32,000 bases of DNA from Alkanindiges sp. WGS2144 (GTDB taxonomy: Bacteria > Pseudomonadota > Gammaproteobacteria > Pseudomonadales > Moraxellaceae), in NCBI RefSeq assembly GCF_043950625.1, contig NZ_CP171007.1. One strand, 5' to 3'. The notes beneath the pieces were generated by a model that saw nothing but the letters and a program-made list of their open reading frames with translations, searched no databases and was not told the DNA's origin. This document shows positions 11,720 to 30,890 of this stretch, piece by piece. Made by a program: the position numbers and the translations under genes. How positions within the stretch are numbered: the first letter of the stretch is position 1; every line of letters starts with the position of its first letter.

Positions 11720-12808
11720 TTAATCCAGAAGGCGCAGTTGCTGGGTGGTCTGATCTGGTCGGCTTAACTCAGCCACGCCGACACCAGCCAGCCGGAACAA
11801 AAGTGGCTGGTCAAAATCCAGCCGATTAATGATTGAATGTACGGCATGCTGGAATGCTGATAAGTCTGGCACATTAGAACTATAAGTAATGGAGCGGGTA
11901 ATAATTTTAAAGTCTGTGGTTTTTAGTTTAATGGTCACGCTTCTGGCACCTAGCTGCTTTTGAGCCATTTTTTGCCATACCTCTATAGCAAGCTGTGGCC
12001 ATATATCGTAAAGCTCAGGCAGCGCTTTATCCTGCATAAACGTGGTTTCAATTGATAGTTGCTGGCGTTGCTGATGGGCATTAACCGGACGATCATCAAT
12101 ACCTCGCGCCAGATCATACAGGCGATATCCATAGCGGCCAAAATGGTGGGCAAGTGCGGCCTGGCTGTGCTGGGCAAGCTCTCCTACAGTGCGAATGCCA
12201 AGACGCTGCATTTTTTGCAAGGTAACCCGGCCTACACCAGGAATTTTTCCTACAGGCAGGGCAGGTAAAAACTGCTCAATCTGATGTGGTTTAATGACAT
12301 ACAGGCCATTTGGCTTATTCCAGTCAGAGGCAATTTTGGCCAAAAATTTGTTAGGCGCTACACCTGCTGAGGCAGTAAGACCGGTTTGCTCAAAGATGTC
12401 CATCCGGATTGCCTGAGCTACTTCTGTAGCACTGGGCAGGTTTTTAAAATTGTGACTGACGTCCAGATAGGCTTCATCCAGTGACAATGGCTCAATCAGG
12501 TCAGTGTACTGTTGTAGTATGGCATGCACCTGCTGTGATACCGCACGGTATTTATTAAAATCAGGCGCAATATAAATAGCATGTGGACAAAGCTGCCGGG
12601 CTCTGGCAACTGACATGGCCGAGCGCAGGCCAAACTGCCGCGCTTCATATGAAGCCGCACAAATTACAGAGCGTGCTCCATCCCAGGCAACTACCACGGG
12701 TTTACCTTTAAGCTGAGGCTGATCACGAGTTTCTACGGAAGCATAAAAAGCATCCATATCAATATGTACAATTTTGCGCAAGGCGAACCCTAAAGCATGA
12801 TGAACCAA
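11720..12808 (-). CDS. dinB: DNA polymerase IV (Y-family translesion polymerase)
   Basis: Canonical N-terminus RKIVHIDMDAFYASVETRDQP. Also SLDEAYLDV, the GIRTVGELA helix-hairpin-helix, and a little-finger domain. The track start 12808 is TTG. An in-frame TTG at 12781 would give MRKIVHIDMD, matching the usual DinB N-terminus, so the true start may be 12781. Confidence 0.92.
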   Translation of the reverse strand: MVHHALGFALRKIVHIDMDAFYASVETRDQPQLKGKPVVVAWDGARSVICAASYEARQFGLRSAMSVARARQLCPHAIYIAPDFNKYRAVSQQVHAILQQYTDLIEPLSLDEAYLDVSHNFKNLPSATEVAQAIRMDIFEQTGLTASAGVAPNKFLAKIASDWNKPNGLYVIKPHQIEQFLPALPVGKIPGVGRVTLQKMQRLGIRTVGELAQHSQAALAHHFGRYGYRLYDLARGIDDRPVNAHQQRQQLSIETTFMQDKALPELYDIWPQLAIEVWQKMAQKQLGARSVTIKLKTTDFKIITRSITYSSNVPDLSAFQHAVHSIINRLDFDQPLLFRLAGVGVAELSRPDQTTQQLRLLD

Positions 12809-12938
12809 AAATCAGATAATTGTCCTGATTGTACGTCACCATAAGCTTTTTATGAGATAGTAGCCTACAAAATTTTGCTAATCGCTTCTAAACTATCCAG
12901 CCTTTAGATTGCCTAGCCCTGATACTGAGTTGCCTCCA

Positions 12939-13592
12939 ATGTCCAAGCCAATTAGCCTTGTAGTCGATTTTCAGTTATTGCCCAGATCGTGGCAGCGCAT
13001 CTGTCAGGCTTTTGGGCTTCAAGCTTTACAACGGCTGGAGCAACAAACGTACCAGCACTTATTACAACACTATTCCCAGCCTGGGCGAGCCTATCATAAC
13101 CTGCAACATTTAACCGAGTGCATCAGGCATTTTGAACAGGTACAGCATTTGTGTGTACAGCCCACAGAAGTGGAAATTGCCTTATGGTTTCACGATGCTG
13201 TGTATGATTCTCACGCCATCGACAATGAGCAAAAAAGTGCTGCGTGGGCGGTAGATTTTTTGCAGCAGGCACAAGCAGAAGCGAGTAAAATTCAGCGGGT
13301 ATGTGATCTAATTATGGCAACCCGTCAGCATCAGGGTGTAGATATTGACCAGCAGTTAATGGTGGATATAGACCTGTCTATTCTGGGCAGTTCACCCATG
13401 CGTTTTGATGAGTATATGCAACAAATCCGGAGGGAATACAGCTTTGTTGCAACAGAAGTTTTTAGGCAAAAGCGGATGGAGGTGTTGCAGCAGTTTTACC
13501 AGCGCCAGAGAATTTACAATACCGACTATTTTTATCAGCACTATGAGCAGGCTGCGCGGAATAATATTCAGCACGCCTTGAGCACAGTATAA
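12939..13592 (+). CDS. HD-superfamily metal-dependent phosphohydrolase (COG4339-like)
   Basis: It carries the YHNLQHLTECI ... ALWFHDAVYDS ... NEQKSAAW pattern, which is typical of the uncharacterised HD-superfamily family often mis-annotated as an NMDA receptor subunit. ATG 12939 (MSKPISL...) is preferred over the TTG 12909 track start. Confidence 0.6.
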   Translation: MSKPISLVVDFQLLPRSWQRICQAFGLQALQRLEQQTYQHLLQHYSQPGRAYHNLQHLTECIRHFEQVQHLCVQPTEVEIALWFHDAVYDSHAIDNEQKSAAWAVDFLQQAQAEASKIQRVCDLIMATRQHQGVDIDQQLMVDIDLSILGSSPMRFDEYMQQIRREYSFVATEVFRQKRMEVLQQFYQRQRIYNTDYFYQHYEQAARNNIQHALSTV

Positions 13593-13650
13593 GCAAATAT
13601 ACAATTTAAATATGGGTTTTATGCATAAGTTTTTTATAAATTCTGGATGT

Positions 13651-13696
13651 AAAAAAGCCCGACGTTATTCAATCCTGAATGGTCGGGCATTTTTTG
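13651..13696. terminator. Bidirectional rho-independent terminator
   Basis: GCCCGAC (13657-13663) pairs with GTCGGGC (13682-13688). An inner ATTC/GAAT pairing extends the stem. A6 (13651-13656) flanks it on one side and T6 (13690-13695) on the other. It can therefore terminate the + strand HD gene and a minus-strand transcript. Confidence 0.8.
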
Positions 13697-13785
13697 TGCT
13701 TCCTGGCTGTCGAATATCCATTCGAGTCCTGCGACTATCTCTTCCTTATGGCGGTATCCTTGCCATATCATCCTTGTCTCGCTAA
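13651..13785 (-). ncRNA. Candidate Csr/Rsm-family (RsmY/RsmZ/CsrB-like) CsrA-sequestering small RNA
   Basis: The minus strand has seven GGA motifs in ~105 nt, six of them AGGA. The plus-strand TCC positions are 13771, 13757, 13743, 13727, 13717, 13701 and 13673, spaced 10-16 nt apart for the first six. Three lie in hairpin loops: TATGGC/GCCATA stem at 13747-13767, TCGAAT/ATTCGA stem at 13710-13725, and the terminator apex. The region ends in a GC stem plus U6. A GacA-type box lies about 65 nt upstream of the likely start. No protein-coding potential. The 5' end is approximate; the candidate -10 is CATTAT at 13795-13790. Confidence 0.65.
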
Positions 13786-13838
13786 CTGAATAATGCAGCA
13801 AGTTCAAAAACCGGAATAGTGGTTAAAACGCCATAGTA

Positions 13839-13856
13839 TGTACGTTATGGCTTACA
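13839..13856 (-). promoter_or_regulatory. GacA/UvrY-type upstream activating palindrome
   Basis: The minus strand reads TGTAAG-CCATAA-CGTACA. The published consensus is TGTAAG-N6-CTTACA, so 11 of 12 specified positions match. The box is centred about 65 nt upstream of the inferred start of the GGA-rich RNA. Confidence 0.55.
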
Positions 13857-13984
13857 TTTAATAACATTCAGCAAGATATACAAACTTTCACTAACATAAA
13901 TTAAACCTTAAAGTTTACTGATCTCTTAAAGAAGCAATAAAATGTGAAGTTTTAAGTACTGAAAAAGGATACATTCGATAAAAA

Positions 13985-14800
13985 ATGAAAGTTCATCATT
14001 TAAATTGCGGGTCTTTTTGTCCTGCTTGTAAAAAACTTTTGCAGGGGAGTGGTGGATGGCTTGAGTCTGCCAGTATGTGCTGCCATTGCCTGCTGCTTGA
14101 AACCAATGATGGACTGGTTTTGGTGGATACAGGGTTTGGGGTGCAGGATGTAGTCAAGCCCACGCATTTAGGTCATGCATTTCGCACGCTCATGCAGCCG
14201 AAATTACTACTGGAAGAAACCGCACTGTTTCAGATTGATCAAATGGGTTACAACCGCCGTGAGGTCAAGCATATTATTTTAACCCATCTGGATCTTGACC
14301 ATGCTGGCGGGATTTCAGATTTTCCGGCAGCGCATATTCATGCTTGCAGCACTGAAATAGAGGCTGCTTTAAATCCATCCAACTGGATGGAGCGAGCCCG
14401 TTATCGTGCCCGTCAATTTAGTTATAATCCCAAATGGACAGCCACCATTCATACTGCTGAGCAGTGGTTTGGTTTTGAGAATGTGCAGCGCTTAAAAGGA
14501 GTCAGGGAAGAAATTTTACTGATACCACTGCCTGGGCATAGTCGTGGTCATTGTGGTGTGGCATTACGTCAGGCCAATGGCAAATGGCTGTTTCATGTGG
14601 GTGATTTATATATGGATCGGCGCAGCTTATATGGCAAGTCACCACATGTGTTGAGACAAAGTGAAAAGTTGCTGGCTGCCAACAACAAGCAGCGCATAGG
14701 TTATCTTAAAAAGGTAAAACATCTCATCGACCAGCATGCCAGCGAGGTAGAGGTATTTTGTGCTCATGATTTTAGTGAGTTAAATCGCTATTTAGCTTAA
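13985..14800 (+). CDS. MBL-fold metallo-hydrolase
   Basis: 271 aa. Beta-lactamase-fold metal motif ILTHLDLDHAGG (HxDxDH variant). Downstream LPGHSRGH and a late HD(F). The Cys-rich N-terminus HHLNCGSFCP...CCHCLLLETNDGLVLVDTGFG is typical of this family. Confidence 0.8.
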   Translation: MKVHHLNCGSFCPACKKLLQGSGGWLESASMCCHCLLLETNDGLVLVDTGFGVQDVVKPTHLGHAFRTLMQPKLLLEETALFQIDQMGYNRREVKHIILTHLDLDHAGGISDFPAAHIHACSTEIEAALNPSNWMERARYRARQFSYNPKWTATIHTAEQWFGFENVQRLKGVREEILLIPLPGHSRGHCGVALRQANGKWLFHVGDLYMDRRSLYGKSPHVLRQSEKLLAANNKQRIGYLKKVKHLIDQHASEVEVFCAHDFSELNRYLA

Positions 14801-14809
14801 GAACGGTAG

Positions 14810-14851
14810 TGCCTGATCAAGCCGGATTGTGCTTAATCAGGCATTTGGATT
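14810..14851 (+). terminator. Rho-independent terminator after the MBL-fold gene
   Basis: TGCCTGAT (14810-14817) pairs with ATCAGGCA (14836-14843), giving an 8-bp stem and an 18-nt loop, followed by TTTGGATT. It lies in the 51-nt gap between the convergent MBL and RND pump genes. Confidence 0.6.
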
Positions 14852-17800
14852 CTAGCTGGTTTTCCTGATTTTTCGTACTTGACGAACACTCCAGTTGGCC
14901 AGGTCATCCAGATAAGTATAGATGACTGGCACCACCACCAGGGTGAGCAGGGTGGAGGTAATGACTCCGCCAATGATGGCATGCGCCATCGGAGCACGTT
15001 GCTCAGCTCCCTCACCTAGGCCGAGCGCCAATGGCACCATCCCCATAATCATGGCGCTGGTGGTCATTAAAATAGGTCGTAAGCGGGTTTGGCCGGATTG
15101 TATAATGGCTTCGTTGCGCGGAACGCCTTTTTCTACCGCTTTTTTAATAAAATCAATCAACAAAATAGCGTTTTTGGTGACTAATCCCATCAGCATAATA
15201 ATGCCGATAATTGAGAAAATATTTAGCGTGCTATTAAACAGGAATAAGGCTAGGAAAACTCCAATTAAGGAAAGCGGCAATGAAGCCATAATGGTAACTG
15301 GATGCAAAAAACTATTAAATTGCGAACCTAGAACCATATAAATAAAGAGCACAGCCAGTATCAGGGCAGTTACTGCATAACCCACCGACTCTTCCATATC
15401 CTTGTTGGCACCTTCGGTCTGGAACTGATAGCCGGGCGGTAATTTCATGTCCTGCTGAATGCGCTTGATGTCCTCACCAATATCGCCTGCTGGTCGCCCT
15501 GAGGTATTTGCATCAATCAGCACCTCACGGAACAGGTTGCGGCGGTTGATTTGTGAAGCGCCCAGTGTTTGCTCAAAACTGGCGATTTGGGAGAGTGGGA
15601 TTAGATTAGCCTGTTGTCCATTACTTATGGCAGTGTTAGTGGAGCTGAAATACAGGTTCTGCAATTGCTCAATGCTTTGGCGCTGGGTTTCAGGCAAGCG
15701 AATGTTAACATCGTAATTTTCGCCATTTGGGTCTTGCCATGTGGTTATATTGTCGCCAGCCAATAAAGGGCGTAAGGCCTGACTGATCTGACCAACTGAC
15801 AGCCCAAGATCACTGGCCGCAGCACGATTTAAATGCACTGCCAGAGTTGGTTTTGGCTCTGCAAGGGAAGAGCGCAAGTCTACAATACCGGGGATATCCT
15901 GCATTTTTTGCATAAACTGGTCGGATAGTTTTTGTAGCTCATCCAGTTCAGGGCCGGTAATAGAAATCATGATAGGCTTAAGTCCGCCCGAAATGCTGTC
16001 ATCATCCGCAGAGACCGAGGTTAAGGTGATGCCCGCCACATCCTGTACCCGGTTGCGTATGGCATTGATGAGTTCATTCAGGCTACGCTCGCGTTCATGT
16101 TTGGGTTTTAGGCTGACACGAAGCACTGCACGGTTACGTCCTGCATTACCTACCGAGTTAATTGAGCCATAAGTGGTGATTACTTCGGGAAAATCTCTGA
16201 GTAGCTGATCAAGCTGTTTAACCTTGGCCTCGGTATATTGCAGGGTGGAATCAACCGGTGTTTCAAACTGAACTTTAAGCTCTCCCATATCAGGGGTGGG
16301 AACAAATTCTTTACCGATCATACCGGCCAGTCCAAATGCGGCAACCAGCGACAAAACGGCAATGCCTAATGTGAGTAGGCGAAAGTGCAAGCAAAACTTT
16401 AAAATAGTGGTATAAATTCCATTTAGCCGGTCAATGGCAGCGGCGCAATGGTCTAAAAAGCGCTGAAACCGGCTTTTTTTGGCTTCTGGAGTATGTTTTT
16501 CTGGCCAGATTGCTGAGAGCATGGGGTCAAGGGTTAGGCTGACAAACATGGAAATAAGTACTGCGGAGCTAACGGCAACCCCAAACTGGTAAAAAAAGCG
16601 TCCAATAATGCCGCCCATAAAAGCAACCGGCAGAAAAACAGCCACAATAGTGAGCGTGGTTGCCAGTACAGCCAGTCCAATCTCCTTGGTGCCATCGAGC
16701 GCTGCCTGCTTGTGATCCTTACCCATCGCTGCATGGCGCACAATGTTTTCACGTACTACAATGGCATCATCAATGAGCAGACCAATACATAACGACAAGG
16801 CCATCAAGGTCATCAGGTTAATACTAAAGCCAAACGCCCATAGCACCGTTAAGGTGCCTAAAAGGGAAATTGGTAGAGTCAGGCCAGTAATGATGGTAGA
16901 GCGCCACGAACCCAAAAATAGCAGAACAATAAGAATTGCCAGCACACCGCCTTCAATCAGGGTTTTGACCACATCAGTAATAGAGGCACGAATTGACTTG
17001 GCCCGGTCTGAACTTAAGGTAAAGGTTACATCTGGCGGTAACTGCTGGCGAATTTTTTCGAGCGTGGCTTTGGTTTGATCGACCACCTCAATCACGTTGG
17101 CTTCAGAAGTTTTTAAAACATCCAGGCTGACCGCACGGTTACCATTAAAAAATGCACCGGTTTCTGCTTCGGCCTGACTATCAGTAACTGTGGCAATCTG
17201 GGACAAATAGACAGGCATATTGCCTCGGCGTGCCACAATGAGCTGGTTAAAATCAATCGGATTAACCAGTCGCCCCTTAATTTCAACCACCAGTTCCTGA
17301 TTGCCATTTTTTAGGGTACCACTAGGCAACTGCATGTTTTCACTACGCAGCACACCGATCACCTGATCAACACTGATGCCGAGTGCCTGCATTTTTTCTG
17401 GCTGTACTTCAACCCGGATTTGCCGTTTAACGTCACCTAGCATGTTAACGTTGCCTACCCCGGAGATAGTGCGTAGCTGGGGAATGATGCGCTGATCCAG
17501 ATAATTGCTCAGGTCGCGCATCGACATGCGATCTGAACGGAAAATGGCTGAAATCACTGGCGCATCACTGGGATTGTAGCGCTGGATTAGCGGGTCTTCG
17601 ACTTCATCGCGCAACTCTGGCTGTACAATAGCCACTTTATCCCGTACATCCTGTGCGGCCAGGCTGGAAGGCACATCCAGATTAAACTCCACAATAACGG
17701 TGGATAAACCTTCACTGGAAGTTGAAATGACCTGCTTGACACCAGAAATGGTGTTAATGGAGTCTTCCAGCTTTTTGGTAACATCCGATTCCACCATCTC

Positions 17801-17968
17801 CGGCGAGGCACCAGGGTAGGTGGTATAGACCACCACAAAAGGAAAATCCACATCCGGAAATTCTTCTACTGTCATGCGCTGCCAGGATGCCAGTCCCATT
17901 ACCATCAATGCCAGCATCAGCATGGCAGTAAAAACAGGATTATTAACGCTAATTCGGGTAAGCCACAT
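14852..17968 (-). CDS. RND efflux transporter permease subunit (AcrB/HAE1-like)
   Basis: 1038 aa. N-terminus [20 protein letters not shown]. It has two large periplasmic loops and a 12-TM architecture. Conserved TM4 region is [17 protein letters not shown]. The C-terminal half includes [13 protein letters not shown]. Confidence 0.93.
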
Positions 17969-18018
17969 ATTTTTACCTTATTCTTTTACCTTGCGTGTCC
18001 ATCGGCTCTAGTGATTTA

Positions 18019-19140
18019 TTAAAGGGCTGTACCAGTAATTTTTACTGGCCTGCCATTGGAATTCTCAGGAATTTCCACCCGGCTGACCAAGTCAACAGGC
18101 TGTATGCCCGTAACCATTGCACTGTTAGTGGCAGCGTCCTGCGCCAGGATGTTAATACTAATTTTATGAATCTTGTTTTGCCGAATGACCCACACATAAG
18201 GCGACTGGGTACTAGCTTGCCAAATAGCATTCTGAGGAATAACCAGGCCACTTTGCCCTTGATCCAGCAGAATAGTTCCTTCTACATAATTGCCAATATT
18301 CAGGCTGGTGGCACTGTTGTTGACATCAGCATAGAACAGTAGAGCACGACTGGCTGGATTAGCAACCGGATTAATGCGTGAAATGCGGGTACTAAATACT
18401 GGCTTTTCTTGCCCGGCAAAATGAAATTGTACGCTTTGCCCCACTTTTAAGCTCACCTGATAGCTATCAGGTACTGAGCCTTGCAGCTCAATCATATTGG
18501 GGTTCACAATTTCAAATAAGGTTTGGCCGTTATTAACAGTTTGCCCAACATCAACCTGCCGGTCAGACACCACACCAGAAATAGGAGCATATACAGTGGC
18601 ATCATTGACGGCTTTTTGGGCAATATCAATCAATGCCTGCTGTGCAGTCTGGTTTTCCCGTTGTGCCCTGGCTTCGGCTTTGCTGCGCTCATATTCGATC
18701 TCAGCAATAAAACCCTGTTTAAACAAGCGCCGGTTGCGCTCAGCCAGATTCTGGCTCAGATCAGCCTGTGCTTTGGCAGCCGTATAGTTGGCACGTGCCT
18801 GTAATAATCTGGCTTGATCATCCTGATTATTAATTCTTAATAGAGTCTGGTTTTTATCAACGTGATCACCATTATTGACATGAATTTGCTGAACTGTACC
18901 GGTGGTTTGGGCCTGAACCGAGGTACGTTGCCTGGCCTCCAGCGTACCAGTGAAATTGATCTGGCTAGATAGGGTACGATATTCAGGCTTAACCAGATCG
19001 CTATAAATTAGTTCAAGAGCCTGTGTTTTTTGTGCTGCTGGTACAGCTGTTTCCTGTTTCTGGCAACCAGCCAGAAGCAGCCAGGAGAGGCAAACGATAT
19101 AAAAACTTTTTTGTATAACTTGCGTGTTATTCATAAACAT
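18019..19140 (-). CDS. RND efflux periplasmic adaptor (membrane fusion protein, HlyD/AcrA family)
   Basis: 373 aa. Lipobox LLAGC is present. It has lipoyl/barrel-sandwich blocks (TGTVQQIHVNNGDHVDKNQTLLRIN and APISGVVSDRQVDVGQTV) and a coiled-coil hairpin between them. It lies 50 nt upstream of the pump gene. The start could be the second ATG at 19134. Confidence 0.9.
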   Translation of the reverse strand: MFMNNTQVIQKSFYIVCLSWLLLAGCQKQETAVPAAQKTQALELIYSDLVKPEYRTLSSQINFTGTLEARQRTSVQAQTTGTVQQIHVNNGDHVDKNQTLLRINNQDDQARLLQARANYTAAKAQADLSQNLAERNRRLFKQGFIAEIEYERSKAEARAQRENQTAQQALIDIAQKAVNDATVYAPISGVVSDRQVDVGQTVNNGQTLFEIVNPNMIELQGSVPDSYQVSLKVGQSVQFHFAGQEKPVFSTRISRINPVANPASRALLFYADVNNSATSLNIGNYVEGTILLDQGQSGLVIPQNAIWQASTQSPYVWVIRQNKIHKISINILAQDAATNSAMVTGIQPVDLVSRVEIPENSNGRPVKITGTAL

Positions 19141-19358
19141 AATTCCATGTTTAGGCTGGCTGCCATTTTATTTAAGCATGTAGCAGCAGACCTTAAATAT
19201 AAACAGGGTGATTATTCACGAAAAACACAGTTTGGGGCAGAAAAAATCGTTAAAATTTTTGAGGACTTAGGGATTTTATGCTTTTTATAGGCTAAAACCA
19301 TACTTGATTAGGCATTTATAGACATCTTACCTATGGCTTAAATGGCTATCCTTTAGGT

Positions 19359-20075
19359 TTATAGCCGACTCAAACGCTGAATGATCTCGGCATATTGCTG
19401 GCGAACTTGTTGTTGGCGCTCACTAATAGCCTGAATGTTTTTTTCAGCATCCTGCACATTTTTTCTATTGTTTTCCAGGCTTTTTTGTAGTGCGGCAGGA
19501 ATGGGCTTGCCCTGTCTTTCATAGTTGGCGGCCTGGGCAATATCAGTGCCTAAGGCACGTTGCAAAGTGATAAGCTGTGCCTGCATATAGCTCTTGCGCG
19601 AGCTCATATCTGCCAGAATCTGGTCGCGCTTGGTGGTGGCCTGACTCACTGAGCCGTAAGTTTTTCTCAGGTTCAAATCAGATTGGCGCTGAGCTTCCTG
19701 AGCCTCACGCTTGGCTTTCTGCGCGGCATAATTTTCTGCTGAATACGGTGGTACACGCTTGATGACCTGCATGTTGCGGTCAAGGGCTTCATAACCATAG
19801 CGTAAATGCTGCTCGGTAATGGTACCGCTCAAATTTGGCTGACCGTTGCTATTATAGTAGCGATACCATCTGATTTTGGGCTGTACATTATTCACTGTGC
19901 TAGCACTGGCGTAGGCGGAGTAATCGTAGGCACTGGCAAGGGGCGACAGCATAAAAATCATGCTACCGGCCATCATGGTGCTGAGTACGGGTTTAATCAG
20001 GGAAAAAAACCTAACCAGAACTGGTTTATTCTGGGCATTTAAAGCAACGGTGTTTCTGGTGTAAAACTGGCTCAT
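19359..20075 (-). CDS. Hypothetical secreted or membrane-anchored coiled-coil protein (DUF4124-like N-terminal module)
   Basis: ATG 20075 (MSQFYTRN...) is preferred because AGGA lies upstream; the track start is 20126. A hydrophobic segment ends ...MLSPLASA/YDY. The segment IRWYRYYNSNGQPNLSG resembles the DUF4124 beta-hairpin. The C-terminal ~130 aa is Q/K/E/R-rich coiled coil. No enzymatic motif was recognised. Confidence 0.5.
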   Translation of the reverse strand: MSQFYTRNTVALNAQNKPVLVRFFSLIKPVLSTMMAGSMIFMLSPLASAYDYSAYASASTVNNVQPKIRWYRYYNSNGQPNLSGTITEQHLRYGYEALDRNMQVIKRVPPYSAENYAAQKAKREAQEAQRQSDLNLRKTYGSVSQATTKRDQILADMSSRKSYMQAQLITLQRALGTDIAQAANYERQGKPIPAALQKSLENNRKNVQDAEKNIQAISERQQQVRQQYAEIIQRLSRL

Positions 20076-20390
20076 GCTTTTATCCTGATGTGAGACAAGA
20101 TCAGTCCGGCTCGCTGGGCAGCACATTAAAATTATAATTCAAGATTAATGGCTGAGGCACAAAAATACAAATATAATCCTTAAGAATAGATGGGGTACAG
20201 ATAAATTATATCCAGTTTAGAATGCAAAAAATGAACTGACAGGTTCAACAGTGTATTTGTGCATTGGCAAACTTGTTGTAATTGTGCTAAAAAGTGAATG
20301 ATCAATGGGGGTAGTCACTGTAGATGATTAAATACTCATTGTCAGTCATTATGCAGTGGACGTTGAAGATAACATGGGAAGATGAAACCA

Positions 20391-23848: not shown

Positions 23849-24685
23849 ATGCCAATTGAGAGTGTCGTCATGGATGAATTGACACATAATGGTTTGCAAT
23901 CGTTGATCAGTGCTGAGATGGCCAGTCTGTGGCGTTCTCTGATTGAGTCACGTATGGGGATGGTATTGCCTGCGCGACAGCACCAGTTGTTTGAGCAGCG
24001 TATTGTGAAAAACATGTCACAGTACCAGCTTGATGCGGACAGTTATTATCAGTTGGTGTGTCAGGATAGATCAGAATGGCAGCGACTGGCAGAATCCCTG
24101 GTTGTGCATGAAACTTCATTTTTTCGCCATCCGCCGTCATTTAATCTGGTAGAGCAGTACCTGATGCAGGCGACACAGCCTGTTAAACTCTGGAGTGTGG
24201 GATGCTCAACCGGTGAGGAAGCGTGGTCACTGGCCATGCTGGCTGACCGGTTTGCCATGTATGGCTATGAGGTACTTGCAACAGATATTAGTCAGCAAGT
24301 GCTGGTCACCGCTAAAGAAGGGATTTATCTCACCCGCAAGACCGAGCAGATCCCTGCGCGTTTTAGGGGAGATAGTGGGCAGGCAGTAGGTCAGCATTAC
24401 TGGCAGATTGCGCCACATTTACGGCCGTATGTGTTTTTTAGGCAGTTTAACCTGATGAATGTGGTTACTTTGCCGTTTAGGCGGTTAAATATTATTTTTT
24501 GCCAAAACGTATTGATTTATTTTAAAAAATTTGATCGCCGTGATATTTTAAATGCTTTGGTAAAGTGTCTGGATGTTGGCGGAGTATTGGTATTGGGGCC
24601 GGGTGAAATACTTGAATGGCGCCATCACCAACTGAAAAAAATTGATTGGTCAGGGACGCTGGCATATGAAAAAATCTGCACCTAA
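23849..24685 (+). CDS. pilK: CheR-type chemoreceptor methyltransferase PilK
   Basis: 278 aa. HETSFFRHP motif. SAM-binding block KLWSVGCSTGEEAWSLAM. Also IIFCQNVLIYF and GGVLVLGPGE. AAGGA RBS upstream. Located between pilJ and chpA as in P. aeruginosa. Confidence 0.9.
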   Translation: MPIESVVMDELTHNGLQSLISAEMASLWRSLIESRMGMVLPARQHQLFEQRIVKNMSQYQLDADSYYQLVCQDRSEWQRLAESLVVHETSFFRHPPSFNLVEQYLMQATQPVKLWSVGCSTGEEAWSLAMLADRFAMYGYEVLATDISQQVLVTAKEGIYLTRKTEQIPARFRGDSGQAVGQHYWQIAPHLRPYVFFRQFNLMNVVTLPFRRLNIIFCQNVLIYFKKFDRRDILNALVKCLDVGGVLVLGPGEILEWRHHQLKKIDWSGTLAYEKICT

Positions 24686-24695
24686 ACAGGATAGT

Positions 24696-27600
24696 ATGAG
24701 CGTATCAAGGCAGGATAATACTCAGCAATCTGCCATGGCTTTGAGTTGGGTAATTGATTCCCTGGACGAAACCTTGCTTGATGCCCGTAAGCTTGTTCAG
24801 GCCGCTAAGCAGCCAGAGCAGCTCAAAGAGGCTAGCCAGTTGCTGCATCAGGTGAGCGGCACCCTAACCATGGCAGAGCTTCCTGATCCTTTAATTCTGT
24901 CGGAAAGCCTGGAGCAACTAGCGTTGGCCATGGCCGCAAGAAAAATAGCACTAAATCATAGTCAGGAACTGGTTAATGGCATAGATACCCTAAAGCATGA
25001 ATTGCATCGCCTGCATCAGGCCAAGCGTTTGCAGCCACTGACGATTTACCGTGCCGTCAGGCAAGTTAGGGCATTGCTGGAAGCCCAAAAACTGAGTACC
25101 AGCAAGACTTATCCAAAAATTGATTACAATTTGCTAATGGTGCCTAATCAGGTTCAAAGCCCTTTAAATGAAGAGAGCTGGCGTCAGGCGACCAGTGCCT
25201 ATCGTCATCTACTCAATGAGTTTTTTTTAAATCCAAAAGAACAGGCGACCTTAGAGGGGTTATATAAGGTTGCCGGGTATTTTGCCGCAGGCGCGGGTAC
25301 TGTACAGCAGGCAGGCTTATGGCGGGTTTTATGCAAATTGCACCAAGCTATGCTGGAACATAAGGTAGATGTCAGTACAGCTGCTCTAAAACAGAATCTT
25401 GTACGACTGGAGCGCATGTTGGCTCAAGAGCGCTTTGATGAAGGCGTGCTTTATGAATTGCTTGAACTGCTCGAGCAATTTGATCTGGATCATGAGTTTA
25501 GCCTGCATCAACAGGCAGTCAGTGCCGCACTTGGCGAGAACAGCATTACCTCTCCGCTGGTTCTGGATAAAATTTTGCTGCTGGTACAAGAAGCCAGAGC
25601 AAGTTTAAGTGAGCACACTGTTGATCAGTTTCAAATCAAGCGTTTGCTGTCTGAAGCGATCCATTTGCTTGAATTAACGGGCTGGCGTGGAACCAGTCAG
25701 CGCCTTGAGCAGGCAATAGGGTATATTAATCAGCCTGAGCAGAAAACAGCAGCAATTGATTCTTTAGAGAAAATTGAGATAGAGCTAAAACAGCTGGTAC
25801 TTGCGTTCAAAAGTCAGGCACATGCTGACAATGGGCTGGATGATCAGAGCTTTGTTGAAGATGCTCACAGCGCGGTGGTACGTGAATCCCGTGTGGCGCT
25901 TGAATCCATCAAGAGCATGTTCTTTGCCTATAGTTCTTCCAGGCAGGATAAAGCCCAGTTAGCAGACTTGCCAGCTCGTTTTGAATCGTTAAAAGGTATT
26001 TTTGTTTTTCTGGGGCTGGAGCGTGCAGCAGAGTTAACTGCCAGCTTGCTTAAAGTATTAAACCTGACACTGTTTAAAAAAGACTATATTCTCAGTCGTA
26101 CTCAGATTGACCTTATTGCCCAAAATATTGCTTCGCTTGAATACTATCTGGATCAATTGGCCGCGCATTTTCATGATGATCAGATTCTGGATAAGTTTGC
26201 GCAAAGCCTGGAAAAAATTACCCAGTCGACTGAAGATGAACCCATTGTATTAGTGGGTGGTCAAAAAATATTCCATGATAAAACTCCTGTAGAGTTATTG
26301 TCGTCTATTGAAGGACTCGCTATGGCGGAGCAGATGCCCACGAACAATCAGGTTGCCAGCCCAGGTCATCAGGCAATTTTAGAGATATCTTTGCCTGCCG
26401 ATGACTTTACGCAGGATGATGATATCCGTGAGATTTTTGTTGAAGAAGCAACAGAAGTACTGGAAAGCCTGCAGGAAAATGTTCCTCAATGGATAGCCCA
26501 GCTACAAAATCTTGAGATTTTAAAGGAAATACGCCGCTCTTTTCATACCTTAAAAGGCTCCGGGCGTATGGTGGGCGCATTTGTGTCTGGTGAGTTTGCC
26601 TGGTCAATTGAAAACATGCTCAATCGGGTACTGGATAATACTATTTCTGTACAGCCGGTAATGATTCAGCTTATTTCTGAGGCAATAGCCAACTATCCAC
26701 AACTGGTGGAAGATTTTTCCCGAAAACAAACCACTCATTTTGAAGTCCGTCCCTATATTTATATTGCCAATGCACTGAGCAAAGGTGAAGACATCGCTGT
26801 AGAGGATCTACCCTGGAATCAAACTCAAGAGTCTGAAGCTGCCCAGTTCGCCGATGACGATCAAAGTAGCGGTATTGAGCAATCTGTTGCCAGCCCAGCT
26901 CATCAGGAAAAAACAGAAGAACAGCATACTGCTGCAATTGATAACGACAGTGAGCAAGAAGACCAGGAAGGCCTGTCCATATTTGTGGAAGAAGCCGAAG
27001 AGCATATTGAAACTCTGCACGCATTTATTGAGGAGCAGGATGAGTATGACGAAGTACCGGATCAGGTAATTCGTGCCCTGCATACCTTGCGTGGTAGTGC
27101 TGCCATGTCTAACGTGGATGCTATTTGCCAGCTTGCTGCGGCTGTAGAAGATGAATTCAAGCGTCTTATTCGCTTGCATCAGCCGGTATCCAAAGATCAC
27201 ATCACTTTCCTTGAGCAACTTGTACAATGTGTAGGTTTTCATCTGGAAGCTCTTGAGCAAGGCAAACAGCTGCCACTTGAAGAACAGGATGTTGTACTAA
27301 TTGATCAGGTGGCACAGTTTACTGCCCAGGCGGCTGGTGACGGCATGCAGGATAGTAGCAAGCCTGCTGGTGTACAGCGCATGGGCCTTGTGACCCATTT
27401 GCTCGATCTATCCCTGGATGAGCTGCTTGATGCTGAATACGAGCTGGAAGACAAACTGGCCAGCGGTCAGGTGAGTGAATACTTTGAACTACTGGGTAAG
27501 CAGAGCCAGCAGTTGTATGAAGCCTCTATGGAAACCCCAGTGAGTGTCTTGCAGCAGCTTACCCAATATCTGTGTAATGTGTATCACAAGCTGAGTAGCG

Positions 27601-30600
27601 TGCCTGCGCAAGCGATTGATGCGACCTTTACTGAATATCTGCTTAATGCTCATTTTGCCCTGACAGGTATTTTTGATGCCTTGGCCGCCGGGCAAAAGCC
27701 AACCCTGGATATTAAAGTGCTTGAAGACTTAAGTGATATTCTGGCACATGAGTTTGATATACCTGTTGAGCAGCCTGCTGCTGTTGGTACTACTGTGGCT
27801 GCAACCCGGCCACAACGGACAGCAAGAACCATTGATGATCAGGCTGATGAAGAACTGCTTGAAATCTTTATGGAAGAAGCAGAAGAGCTGATTGGTGAAA
27901 TTGAGCATAGCTTTAGCGAGTGGCAGCATAACCCGACAGATATTGAGCCACTAAAAATATTACAGCGTCACTTGCACACCCTAAAAGGTGGTGCACGCAT
28001 GGCACAGGTTAGCAGCCTGGGTGATTTTGGCCATGAGCTGGAAACCGTGTATGAAAGACTGGTGAATGGCACATTAAGCTCAACACCGGCGCTGGTTCAG
28101 TTCATGCGTCATGCCCAGGATATTGTGGCTGAGCAGGTTGAGCAGTTAAGTACTGAGCAGACTTCTTTCTTTGCTGAAGATGAATTTCAGGTTTTACAGC
28201 GCTATCTGGCCACTGGAGACGATAGCGAACTTAGCCAGCCAGGTAGTCAGCAGGTTGGGGCTGAGCCTACAGCAGCATTAGTGGATACAGCTGCCCTTGT
28301 TGAGCCAGCAACCGAGCAATTTGAGCCTGAGCAACTGGAAAAATCTGTAGCAACAGCAGATCTTGCAAGAATGGCCGATGAAGGGGATATCAGCAAGCCA
28401 GCTACGCCTACTCAACCAGTAATAGCATCTGCACCAACCTTAGCCAGTGCGCGTTATCAGTATGCAACTTCCCGAGCATGGACAGATGAAAACCGTCCAG
28501 AACCTGAAATACTGAAGCTGTTTCTGGAAGAGGCTCAAGAGCAAGTGGGGCATAGCAGTCAGCTTTTGCAGCAATGGCTAAAAGATACCCGGGAAAAACG
28601 GCCTTTGCTGGAGTTACAGCGCAGCCTGCATACCCTAAAAGGCGGGGCACGTATGGCTGGAATCTCAGTGCTGGGTGATTTTTCCCATGAACTGGAATTT
28701 GTCTATGAAGAGCTGGCGACCTCCCAGAAGCCTGTACCTGCCCTGGCTGGCAAGTTACTACAGTTTTGCCACGACTGGCTAAGCGATGCCATTGAAGTGC
28801 TGGAAAGTCAGCAGGAACCGCTTGAGCCTGTCGCTTTGATCCAGAGCTTGCAACTGCTACGCAAAGACCCTGACAGCTTGACCAGCTTGCCGCGTTTTGA
28901 TGTGCAGCAACAGCAGTTCCAGCAGGAACCAAGTACGCAAACCCTGTTTGAGCAGGAAAGCCTGTTTGAGATACACGGTGATGGCTCAGAGCCGCCACCT
29001 ATGCTGGGGCTATTTGGTCAGCAACATGCAGAGCAGGTTGCCAGTGCCAATGAAATGATCCGTGTTTCTGCCAGCATGATGGAAAAAATGATTAACCTTG
29101 CTGGTGAAACTGCCATTAACCGTGGCCGTATTGAAATGGGGGTCAACAATATTGGCTTTGTGCTGGATGAGATGGGCTTGACCATTCAGCGTTTGGCGGA
29201 ACAGTTACGTCGTATGGAGGGTGAACTGGAATCCCAGATTCTGGCCCGCCATGAGCAGGAGCGTGGACAGTATCTGGATTTTGATCCGTTAGAAATGGAT
29301 CAATATTCTGCCCTGAACCAGCTGTCCAAATCGTTGGCGGAATCCGCTTCGGACTTGGTAGACTTTAAAAATACCTTAAAAGATAAATTGCGTGATACCG
29401 AAAACCTGTTATTGCAACAGTCCCGTACCCAATCGGAGCTTCAGGACGGATTAATGAATTCGCGTCTGGTTCCTTTCTCGCGATTATTGCCACGCTTGCA
29501 ACGCATTGTGCGCCAGACATCTACAGAGCTGGGTAAGCCAGCCGAATTAACGATTCAAAATGCTGAAGGTGAGCTGGATCGTACGATTCTTGACCGTATT
29601 GTTGCACCACTGGAACACATGCTGCGTAATGCGGTTGACCATGGTCTGGAAACTGCCGAACAGCGGCAGGCTGCCAATAAACCTGCAATTGGCCAGATTA
29701 GCCTGAATGTCGAACGGCAGGGTAATGAAATTATTATTACCCTTGACGATGATGGCCGGGGGATTAATGTTCAGGCAGTACGCAAAAAAGCCATTGAGCG
29801 TGGCCTGATTGCGGCAGATTCCAAGCTCAGTGACTACGATGTCATGCAGTTTATTTTTAATGCTGGTCTGACCACCGCGGAGAAAGTGACCCAGATTTCT
29901 GGCCGTGGCGTTGGCATGGATGTGGTACAAAGTGAAATTAAACTACTGGGTGGTACGGTAAGTGCAGATTCTACACCAGGGCAAGGTACCCGTTTTACCT
30001 TGCGCCTACCACTTACTGTAGCAGTAACAGATGCCTTGATGGTGCGTGTGGCAGAACGCCAGTTTGCTATTCCACTGGCTCATATTGAGCGTATTGTCCG
30101 GGTATCTCCGGTGGCGCTGGAGCAATATTACCATAGCAATAATGAGCAATTTGATATTGATGGCCAGTCCTATCGATTAAGGTATTTGGGCGAGTTTACA
30201 CAGGGTATCAAAGCGCCTCACCTACAGTCGCAAAGTATGTCTTTACCCGTACTGCTGGTGAAGAGCATGGGTAAGTTCACCGCAATTCAGGTTGACCAGC
30301 TGGTGGGTTCCCGCTCAGAAATTGTCGTTAAACCGGCAGGGCAGCAACTGACCTCTATCGATATGATCTCTGGTGCCACCATTCTTGGTGATGGCTCGGT
30401 CAGTATCATTCTGGATGCACAGGCTTTGGCGCGTCGCGCAGCGGCAACCGAGCGTATGCAGGTGATTCCAGCTCAGGAAACTGCGTCCGTAACTAGCCGT
30501 GCTGATCATAGAAAACAACTGGTCATGGTAGTTGATGATTCTGTAACGGTGCGTAAGGTAACCACACGCTTGCTGGAACGTCAGGGTTATGAAGTGGTCA

Positions 30601-30890
30601 CGGCCAAAGATGGTGTGGACGCCATAGAAAAACTGGAAGAAGTCACCCCGGATATCATGCTGCTGGATATTGAAATGCCGCGCATGGATGGTTTTGAGGT
30701 GGCAAATCTGGTACGACACAATGACCGTATTAGTGAGTTGCCTATTATCATGATTACTTCAAGAACCGGCGAGAAGCACCGTGAGCGTGCTTTCTTGACA
30801 GGAGTGAACTGCTACATGGGCAAACCTTTCCAGGAACTGGAATTATTGCAGAATATTGAAGAGCTGCTTGAAACTGCCAGTAATGGTTAG
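24696..30890 (+). CDS. chpA: Multi-Hpt CheA-type hybrid histidine kinase ChpA
   Basis: About 2060 aa. Four canonical Hpt motifs have their His codons at 26544 (SFHTLKGSGRMVG), 27081 (ALHTLRGSAAMSN), 27975 (HLHTLKGGARMAQ) and 28629 (SLHTLKGGARMAG). An N-terminal FimL/ChpA-like Hpt has its His at 24846 (LHQVSGTL). The CheA dimerisation and HATPase core is present (HMLRNAVDHG, DDGRGI, GRGVGMD). A CheW-like domain follows. The C-terminal receiver (VMVVDDS; DIMLLDIEMPRMDG) has its Asp codon at 30666. The start is ambiguous: ATG 24666, 24696 (AGGA upstream, no overlap with pilK) or 24738 (MALSWV...). The track start is TTG 24642. Confidence 0.93.
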   Translation: MSVSRQDNTQQSAMALSWVIDSLDETLLDARKLVQAAKQPEQLKEASQLLHQVSGTLTMAELPDPLILSESLEQLALAMAARKIALNHSQELVNGIDTLKHELHRLHQAKRLQPLTIYRAVRQVRALLEAQKLSTSKTYPKIDYNLLMVPNQVQSPLNEESWRQATSAYRHLLNEFFLNPKEQATLEGLYKVAGYFAAGAGTVQQAGLWRVLCKLHQAMLEHKVDVSTAALKQNLVRLERMLAQERFDEGVLYELLELLEQFDLDHEFSLHQQAVSAALGENSITSPLVLDKILLLVQEARASLSEHTVDQFQIKRLLSEAIHLLELTGWRGTSQRLEQAIGYINQPEQKTAAIDSLEKIEIELKQLVLAFKSQAHADNGLDDQSFVEDAHSAVVRESRVALESIKSMFFAYSSSRQDKAQLADLPARFESLKGIFVFLGLERAAELTASLLKVLNLTLFKKDYILSRTQIDLIAQNIASLEYYLDQLAAHFHDDQILDKFAQSLEKITQSTEDEPIVLVGGQKIFHDKTPVELLSSIEGLAMAEQMPTNNQVASPGHQAILEISLPADDFTQDDDIREIFVEEATEVLESLQENVPQWIAQLQNLEILKEIRRSFHTLKGSGRMVGAFVSGEFAWSIENMLNRVLDNTISVQPVMIQLISEAIANYPQLVEDFSRKQTTHFEVRPYIYIANALSKGEDIAVEDLPWNQTQESEAAQFADDDQSSGIEQSVASPAHQEKTEEQHTAAIDNDSEQEDQEGLSIFVEEAEEHIETLHAFIEEQDEYDEVPDQVIRALHTLRGSAAMSNVDAICQLAAAVEDEFKRLIRLHQPVSKDHITFLEQLVQCVGFHLEALEQGKQLPLEEQDVVLIDQVAQFTAQAAGDGMQDSSKPAGVQRMGLVTHLLDLSLDELLDAEYELEDKLASGQVSEYFELLGKQSQQLYEASMETPVSVLQQLTQYLCNVYHKLSSVPAQAIDATFTEYLLNAHFALTGIFDALAAGQKPTLDIKVLEDLSDILAHEFDIPVEQPAAVGTTVAATRPQRTARTIDDQADEELLEIFMEEAEELIGEIEHSFSEWQHNPTDIEPLKILQRHLHTLKGGARMAQVSSLGDFGHELETVYERLVNGTLSSTPALVQFMRHAQDIVAEQVEQLSTEQTSFFAEDEFQVLQRYLATGDDSELSQPGSQQVGAEPTAALVDTAALVEPATEQFEPEQLEKSVATADLARMADEGDISKPATPTQPVIASAPTLASARYQYATSRAWTDENRPEPEILKLFLEEAQEQVGHSSQLLQQWLKDTREKRPLLELQRSLHTLKGGARMAGISVLGDFSHELEFVYEELATSQKPVPALAGKLLQFCHDWLSDAIEVLESQQEPLEPVALIQSLQLLRKDPDSLTSLPRFDVQQQQFQQEPSTQTLFEQESLFEIHGDGSEPPPMLGLFGQQHAEQVASANEMIRVSASMMEKMINLAGETAINRGRIEMGVNNIGFVLDEMGLTIQRLAEQLRRMEGELESQILARHEQERGQYLDFDPLEMDQYSALNQLSKSLAESASDLVDFKNTLKDKLRDTENLLLQQSRTQSELQDGLMNSRLVPFSRLLPRLQRIVRQTSTELGKPAELTIQNAEGELDRTILDRIVAPLEHMLRNAVDHGLETAEQRQAANKPAIGQISLNVERQGNEIIITLDDDGRGINVQAVRKKAIERGLIAADSKLSDYDVMQFIFNAGLTTAEKVTQISGRGVGMDVVQSEIKLLGGTVSADSTPGQGTRFTLRLPLTVAVTDALMVRVAERQFAIPLAHIERIVRVSPVALEQYYHSNNEQFDIDGQSYRLRYLGEFTQGIKAPHLQSQSMSLPVLLVKSMGKFTAIQVDQLVGSRSEIVVKPAGQQLTSIDMISGATILGDGSVSIILDAQALARRAAATERMQVIPAQETASVTSRADHRKQLVMVVDDSVTVRKVTTRLLERQGYEVVTAKDGVDAIEKLEEVTPDIMLLDIEMPRMDGFEVANLVRHNDRISELPIIMITSRTGEKHRERAFLTGVNCYMGKPFQELELLQNIEELLETASNG

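Follow-up and report, generated by a model that had tools for sequence, protein, structure and literature searches.

What lies in the intergenic gap between two plus-strand genes of Alkanindiges sp. WGS2144, a member of the Moraxellaceae and hence of the same family as Acinetobacter? In the stretch of 32,000 nucleotides (nt) analysed here (the window, to which all coordinates refer), an open reading frame (ORF) of 227 codons encoding an "HD" protein ends with its stop at 13592, and a gene for a protein with a metallo-beta-lactamase fold (MBL) starts at 13985, leaving 392 nt between the two. On the minus strand of this gap, at 13651-13785, we find what is, with a probability of roughly 80%, a stand-alone gene for a non-coding CsrA-sponge RNA of the Csr/Rsm class, ~130-135 nt in length and oriented convergently with the HD gene and divergently from the MBL gene. 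A first-pass annotation of the letters had pointed out that no ORF explains the gap and had proposed a sponge of this kind on its minus strand. The minus-strand sequence quoted there reads identically in our analysis, the length of the gap is confirmed, and no reading frame within it is conserved in orthologues; at the level of sequence, the sponge reading is supported. The promoter region and the predicted RNA with its structural elements are composed as follows:

13839-13856, minus strand: UvrY/GacA-box-like palindrome (upstream activating sequence), TGTAAGccataaCGTACA, of the form TGTAAG-N6-CGTACA
13790-13795, minus strand: -10-like hexamer CATTAT, 44-50 nt after the box and at the same spacer position in orthologues
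13651-13785, minus strand: predicted small RNA (sRNA) of ~130-135 nt, from a conserved UUAGCG to a U6 tract; covariance-model score 135 bits
13731-13782, minus strand: 5′ domain closed by helix P1, in which GCGA (13779-13782) pairs with UCGC (13731-13734) in the RNAalifold consensus
13747-13767, minus strand: stem-loop 1, (U)AUGGC/GCCAU(A), whose loop presents A-A-GGA (folding and consensus)
13710-13725, minus strand: stem-loop 3, UCGAAU/AUUCGA, whose loop presents U-GGA-U (folding and consensus)
13651-13694, minus strand: intrinsic terminator, with an A-tract, the stem GCCCGAC...GUCGGGC (13657-13688), an inner hairpin with the loop CAGGAU, and U6 (13651-13656)

The most conspicuous property of the segment is its wealth of GGA motifs. 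Seven GGA, six of them AGGA, lie within ~110 nt (GGA starts, in plus-strand coordinates, at 13773, 13759, 13745, 13729, 13719, 13703 and 13675), with successive spacings of 14, 14, 16, 10 and 16 nt among the first six, so that both the counts and the 10-16-nt spacing given by the first-pass annotation hold. When AGGA was counted in sliding 110-nt frames on both strands of the 32 kb, the maximum of six per frame was reached at this element only; elsewhere in the window the count rose to three at most, also on the plus strand. The background of 0.0023-0.0028 AGGA per nt corresponds to ~0.3 expected per 110 nt, close to the ~0.4 estimated earlier and far below the six observed. The 5′-most motif deserves particular mention: GGA 1, embedded in ACAAGGAUGA, fits the CsrA/RsmA consensus CANGGAYG as well as the core of RUACARGGAUGU, the consensus obtained by systematic evolution of ligands by exponential enrichment (both quoted in PMC13643297), and it is the only occurrence of CANGGAYG on the minus strand of the window.

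Is the element conserved? Relatives were gathered from contigs encoding homologues of the flanking HD and MBL proteins, and the element turned up in five more lineages, four of them metagenomic and the fifth A. illinoisensis, giving six lineages together with the window. The gene order DinB-HD-gap-MBL-AcrB recurs in A. illinoisensis (locus L081) and in the metagenomic loci L083/L084/L085/L211 and L208/L209, and in every gap framed in this way the element occurs in the same orientation. The closer copies served to build a covariance model, which in further loci returned a copy in L214 (52 bits), between an AraC-type gene and the MBL gene with no HD gene adjoining, and another in L215 (36 bits), between an alpha/beta-hydrolase gene and a cupin gene that adjoins the MBL gene. 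Scores in the five other lineages ranged from 36 to 176 bits, and the best score in a control of 634 kb of unrelated DNA, much of it preselected for the sequence pattern of stem-loop 1, was 20 bits. L214 and L215 would appear to come from related organisms; compared with the window, their PilG is 93% and their MBL protein 62-65% identical. In an alignment of the whole gap, identity to the window was 78-83% across the 18-nt palindrome, 63-71% across the RNA region (indels counted as mismatches), 43-47% in the promoter spacer and the rest of the gap on the MBL side, and 9-29% downstream of the terminator.

In protein searches, the HD protein is 100% identical to one of Alkanindiges sp. WGS2144, and the MBL protein leads to the same organism; the next named match of the HD protein is from A. 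illinoisensis (51% identity). In L087 and L210, which carry HD homologues from beyond the Alkanindiges group, the gene lies in a differing context with no element. A scan of a genome collection with the MBL protein yielded only relatives of at most 50% identity (Aquabacterium, Amycolatopsis), the syntenic Alkanindiges loci not being among them. Compared with plasmid sequences by blastn, the element and its promoter had no match. Scanning metagenomes with the pattern ATGGCANGGAN{2,7}GCCATAAGGA produced chance matches in coding sequence, with no homologue among the matches listed; one of the sequences retrieved, the 26-mer ATGGCAGGGATCGGAAGCCATAAGGA, occurs in at least 83 human-gut contigs (within L088-L207), is apparently coding and matches the search pattern by chance. 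No second copy of the element was found in the window or in the relatives' loci, where plus-strand matches were confined to the palindromic terminator. RNAs of the Csr/Rsm class mostly occur as sets of two or three.

Across the six lineages, the seven GGA sites of the window RNA are placed and kept as follows:

13771-13773, minus strand: GGA 1, within the consensus-matching motif described above; unpaired in the minimum free energy (MFE) and consensus structures; kept in all six lineages
13757-13759, minus strand: GGA 2, loop of stem-loop 1; all lineages
13743-13745, minus strand: GGA 3, single-stranded, directly 3′ of stem-loop 1 (AUAAGGA); a GGA kept in all lineages
13727-13729, minus strand: GGA 4, directly 3′ of P1 (GCAGGA); four lineages, with AAGGC in L081 and L208
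13717-13719, minus strand: GGA 5, loop of stem-loop 3; all lineages
13701-13703, minus strand: GGA 6, single-stranded before the terminator, CCAGGAAG; a GGA here in all lineages
13673-13675, minus strand: GGA 7, apical loop of the inner hairpin of the terminator; five lineages, with AUGA in L083/L085

Five of the seven positions are thus filled in every lineage. The terminator-loop GGA is not universal, one lineage (L083/L085) having AUGA instead, and L081 and L208 have lost GGA 4 and gained one or two other GGA downstream, in and beside a 10-nt insertion. The total hardly moves, amounting to 7-8 GGA on the RNA strand in all six lineages as compared to 0-1 on the opposite strand. That individual sites turn over while their number is kept suggests that selection acts on having many exposed GGA sites, a pattern of conservation that would fit a multivalent protein-binding RNA.

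Are these sites accessible? RNAfold predicts an MFE of -41.5 kcal/mol for the segment (z-score -2.7 against dinucleotide shuffles). Three GGA motifs fall in hairpin loops of this fold, one each in UAUGGC/GCCAUA, in UCGAAU/AUUCGA and at the apex of the terminator, and the remaining four are mostly unpaired. The earlier suggestion that three GGA sit in hairpin loops, one of them at the terminator apex, is thereby borne out, and the folding of the minus strand that had been proposed as a check leaves all GGA in loops or mostly unpaired. In the RNAalifold consensus, all seven occupy loops or linkers (four of them linkers), and for five or six of them the ensemble of the single sequence gives a probability of being unpaired that exceeds 0.85. 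The 3′ end conforms to the earlier description of a GC stem followed by U6, and a GC-rich stem and then U5-6 are conserved across lineages. The terminator also reads in the other direction, with GTCGGGC followed by ATTTTTTGT on the plus strand, 60-100 nt after the HD stop, and it probably ends the HD gene as well.

The predicted helices are further supported by covariation. In a model-guided alignment of seven rows representing the six lineages, standard pairs fill 96.4% of cells, and nine base pairs are changed on both sides, distributed over P1, stem-loop 3, the terminator stem and its inner hairpin. P1 is 100% paired in the seven rows, its innermost pair turning from A-U to G-C in the L083/L085 lineage. 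Four of the seven pairs of stem-loop 3 are changed on both sides across lineages (for instance, C-G to A-U and A-U to U-A), and the terminator stem, likewise 100% paired in all seven rows, has three such pairs (G-C/A-U swaps in L214 and L215). In stem-loop 1, the stem does not vary among the five copies of the Alkanindiges type, and L214 retains a shorter version, GGC/GCC. Column shuffling reached the observed value in none of 500 trials for four of five measures, and in 101 of 500 for the remaining one, further pair types; when the partners were shifted by 1-3 columns, pairing fell to 32-49%. RNAalifold, applied to the five closer copies as aligned by plain MAFFT, recovered the same helices with four compensatory pairs. 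The conservation of GGA motifs along with compensatory stem changes, to which the first-pass annotation had looked as a check, is hence observed in six lineages.

Upstream of the RNA, the palindrome at 13839-13856 resembles the UvrY/GacA box, whose consensus is TGTAAGN6CTTACA (PMC3171408) and which is a hallmark promoter element of Csr/Rsm RNAs (PMC3171408, PMC1488887). It differs from the consensus at a single position, and no other site in the window matches with one mismatch or none; the expectation is 0.087 such matches per 32 kb (300 shuffles). All six lineages have the box, in the form TGTAmG-N6-CkTACr, and in all six the distance from its end to the first conserved base of the RNA is exactly 53 nt, even though the spacer itself is so poorly conserved; the distance from the box to the MBL start varies among lineages. 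The -10-like hexamer has counterparts in the orthologues (GATGAT, GATGAT, GACAAT and GATTAT). No -35 element was found, and a generic sigma-70 scan gave no full promoter on the minus strand, as expected of an activator-dependent promoter. Transcription would start at about 13780-13785, which would put the centre of the box near position -65.

Together, this suggests a regulatory circuit of familiar design. A phosphorylated response regulator of the GacA/UvrY type would bind the palindrome, ~65 bp upstream of the start, and activate a promoter that has a -10 but no -35 element. The minus-strand transcript would run to 13651-13694, where the sequence and structure of a terminator are evident and where it would presumably end. 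As predicted from folding and covariation, the RNA would adopt a 5′ domain with a 4-bp closing helix, two hairpins with GGA in their loops and a terminator hairpin with a further GGA loop, and would expose four more GGA in single-stranded linkers. Its seven sites, one of which is a near-perfect high-affinity motif (ACAAGGAUG), could then bind about three CsrA/RsmA dimers and titrate the protein off the ribosome-binding sites of target mRNAs, the net effect being that Gac signalling would lift translational control by CsrA. As for the partners, a protein search finds CsrA annotated in Acinetobacter, Moraxella and Psychrobacter, and in A. baylyi genetic interactions link gacA, gacS and csrA (PMC12455638). 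Within the 32-kb window, neither csrA nor gacA/gacS is encoded.

Several results weigh against a CsrA sponge. Rfam 15 at gathering thresholds gave no match in the window, and no curated Csr/Rsm model accepts the element; among the lineages searched singly against Rfam (the window, L081, L083, L214 and L215), three of the five (L081, L083 and L215) had no Csr/Rsm match at E <= 10. A query with Acinetobacter-type CsrA returned no Alkanindiges-named protein in the best 120 matches or 20 clusters. In L212 (DinB-gap-MBL) and L213 (cupin-MBL), the corresponding gap lacks the element, which is thus not indispensable at this position. The covariation comes from only six independent lineages, in an alignment fitted to the model, and the transcript, its 5′ end, CsrA binding and Gac dependence are what we infer from the sequence. 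Might the element, then, be a conserved small RNA that acts otherwise, be it by base-pairing with mRNAs with or without Hfq or through another protein, its GGA motifs being incidental or serving another ligand? Conservation, structure and promoter mark an RNA gene and not its ligand, and the sub-threshold Rfam scores and the fruitless CsrA query speak for such an alternative. We nevertheless consider it improbable: repeated GGA motifs are conserved in loops and linkers at a count of 7-8 while intervening sequence and single sites turn over, which argues for a multivalent protein-binding RNA rather than a seed-pairing sRNA, GGA 1 is an exact match to the CsrA/RsmA consensus (PMC13643297), and the GacA box is typical of Csr/Rsm promoters (PMC3171408, PMC1488887).

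Could the gap do without an RNA gene altogether, and merely combine a bidirectional terminator of the HD gene with a divergent promoter or operator of the MBL gene? The sequence just past the HD stop does read as a terminator on the plus strand as well, and only 128 nt separate the palindrome from the MBL start downstream of it, so that it could in principle regulate that gene. Signals of this sort, however, would not account for the ~100 nt conserved from promoter to terminator, with compensatory changes in helices that have no role at the DNA level, nor for the conserved strand asymmetry of GGA. Moreover, it is the distance from box to RNA that is fixed at 53 nt, while that from box to MBL start varies, a cupin gene separates the L215 element from the MBL gene, and the L214 element has no adjoining HD gene. 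We therefore deem an arrangement of DNA signals alone very unlikely. A small protein, for which the mechanical ORF list offers two overlapping 57-codon candidates (13634-13807, minus strand, and 13612-13785, plus strand), is more improbable still, to the point of being negligible, and was rejected: neither frame is open in the orthologues, where indels of 19 and 10 nt, which are not multiples of 3, and single-base gaps interrupt them, stop patterns differ from genome to genome and the longest frames are different ones.

Having weighed these alternatives, we return to the CsrA sponge and ask where among the known systems it belongs. Judged by the criteria for recognising Csr/Rsm sRNAs (Kulkarni et al. 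2006, PMC1488887), the locus offers an intergenic non-coding unit, a high density of exposed GGA, a terminator, a GacA box upstream and conservation; GGA repeats in loops with a terminator behind them are the sponge architecture that the first-pass annotation had claimed. It most resembles Pseudomonas RsmY and RsmZ (PrrB), which are ~110-135 nt long (a size match already suggested, and kept by our estimate of 130-135 nt), present GGA in loops and linkers, end in an intrinsic terminator and are preceded by a GacA box of the TGTAAG-N6-CTTACA type. There are also weak model matches in this direction: at relaxed thresholds, the window matches PrrB_RsmZ over its full length with 13.7 bits (gathering threshold 44; E = 0.89 in 551 nt), and L214 matches RsmY over the 3′ two-thirds with 24.5 bits (gathering threshold 57; E = 5.8e-4). 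These scores are far under gathering, and the three lineages without any match set the element further apart from RsmY/RsmZ, as do its right half-site, which is usually CGTACA and not CTTACA, the closure of its 5′ domain by a 4-bp long-range helix, and its having only two internal GGA hairpins with most sites in linkers. The families of Rfam clan CL00106 considered were CsrB (RF00018), CsrC (RF00084), PrrB_RsmZ (RF00166), RsmY (RF00195) and RsmX; the Rfam comparison that the first-pass annotation had called for accordingly failed to place the element in any of them, the 13.7 bits for RsmZ being the best score of the window, and membership in RsmX, RsmY, RsmZ, CsrB or CsrC was rejected, all scores lying below gathering.

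Closer to home, rsmX/Y/Z genes were predicted by the same criteria in Acinetobacter sp. ADP1 and Psychrobacter arcticus (Kulkarni et al. 2006, PMC1488887), and experimental work on A. baumannii has reported three CsrA-sponge sRNAs, CsrB/CsrC/CsrD (Singh et al. 2025, as cited in PMC13516227 and PMC13643297). With these sponges of Acinetobacter and Psychrobacter, compared here by description and not by sequence, the element shares the family Moraxellaceae, the recognition criteria and the proposed titration of CsrA; the genes flanking the rsm loci of ADP1 have no obvious correspondence to its DinB/HD/MBL context. Enterobacterial CsrB/CsrC and CsrB1/CsrB2 of Vibrio and Shewanella have in common with it an activator of the UvrY/BarA (GacA/GacS) type acting through the same box (PMC3171408) and the GGA-repeat sponge mechanism that we propose. 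They are, however, 250-370 nt long with 9-22 GGA, as compared to ~135 nt and seven GGA here, and the five lineages searched gave no match to Rfam CsrB or CsrC at E <= 10. One may go further and speculate that the Alkanindiges branch of the Moraxellaceae has a Csr/Rsm family of its own, uncatalogued and detected by no Rfam model, of which the element is the founding member; lying in a recombination-prone spot linked to MBL and pilG-chpA, it could be a locally exchanged cassette whose gain or loss, as in L212 and L213, would re-tune CsrA control, possibly of type IV pili, between close relatives; we regard this extended scenario as rather unlikely.

The neighbourhood of the element provides additional observations. 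Besides the genes named above, the window contains cdsA-dxr-rseP-bamA-skp-lpxD-fabZ-lpxA, a gene for a GGDEF protein, dinB and an RND efflux pump, as well as the chemosensory cluster pilG-pilH-pilI-pilJ-cheR-chpA-cheB. The tie of the RNA to the cyclic di-GMP and pilus genes of the window is only positional. HD proteins are 49-53% identical between the window (gene at 12909-13592, plus strand) and its syntenic counterparts (L081, L083, L085 and L208), compared with 71-86% for DinB, MBL and AcrB. L083 and L085 have near-identical RNAs and different HD alleles, their sequences diverging directly after the terminator, which suggests a recombination breakpoint there. The locus as a whole (11720-20126 in the window) is variable, the RNA being flanked, depending on the relative, by DinB and HD genes, by the AraC-type gene or by hydrolase and cupin genes. 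It is only in loci of the Alkanindiges type that the RND pump (14852-19140) separates MBL from the pilG cluster; the other loci have MBL, a hypothetical gene and pilG side by side, which leaves the RNA within 2-7 kb of the Pil-Chp genes. In the window, an ORF of 255 codons (19359-20126, minus strand), without a Pfam match, lies divergent to and upstream of pilG, and its position is kept in L213, L214 and L215 at 53-63% identity. Further along, 24642-30890 (plus strand) encodes a 2082-residue hybrid kinase of the ChpA type, typical of Pil-Chp systems, whose domains include at least four Hpt, a CheW and a receiver domain. Finally, the database protein of the MBL gene (13985-14800, plus strand) counts 241 aa as compared to the 271-aa ORF from 13985; as relatives can be aligned with the longer form over its first 30 residues, beginning at residue 1, the true start probably lies upstream of the annotated one.

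What does the element add? It confirms a known regulatory design and no new one, and would not surprise a specialist; its value lies in annotation and comparison, not in mechanism. It is an uncatalogued RNA of the Csr/Rsm class in a family in which such RNAs have already been predicted and partly validated. The expectation that standard annotation would overlook it proved right, and that Rfam at gathering thresholds misses it entirely exposes an annotation gap, which the material at hand may help to close: the six-lineage alignment, the consensus structure and the fixed 53-nt geometry suffice to seed a new covariance model for the Moraxellaceae. To our knowledge, no sRNA has been described so far in Alkanindiges. 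The element would thus add a Gac/Csr regulatory RNA to this hydrocarbon-degrading environmental genus.

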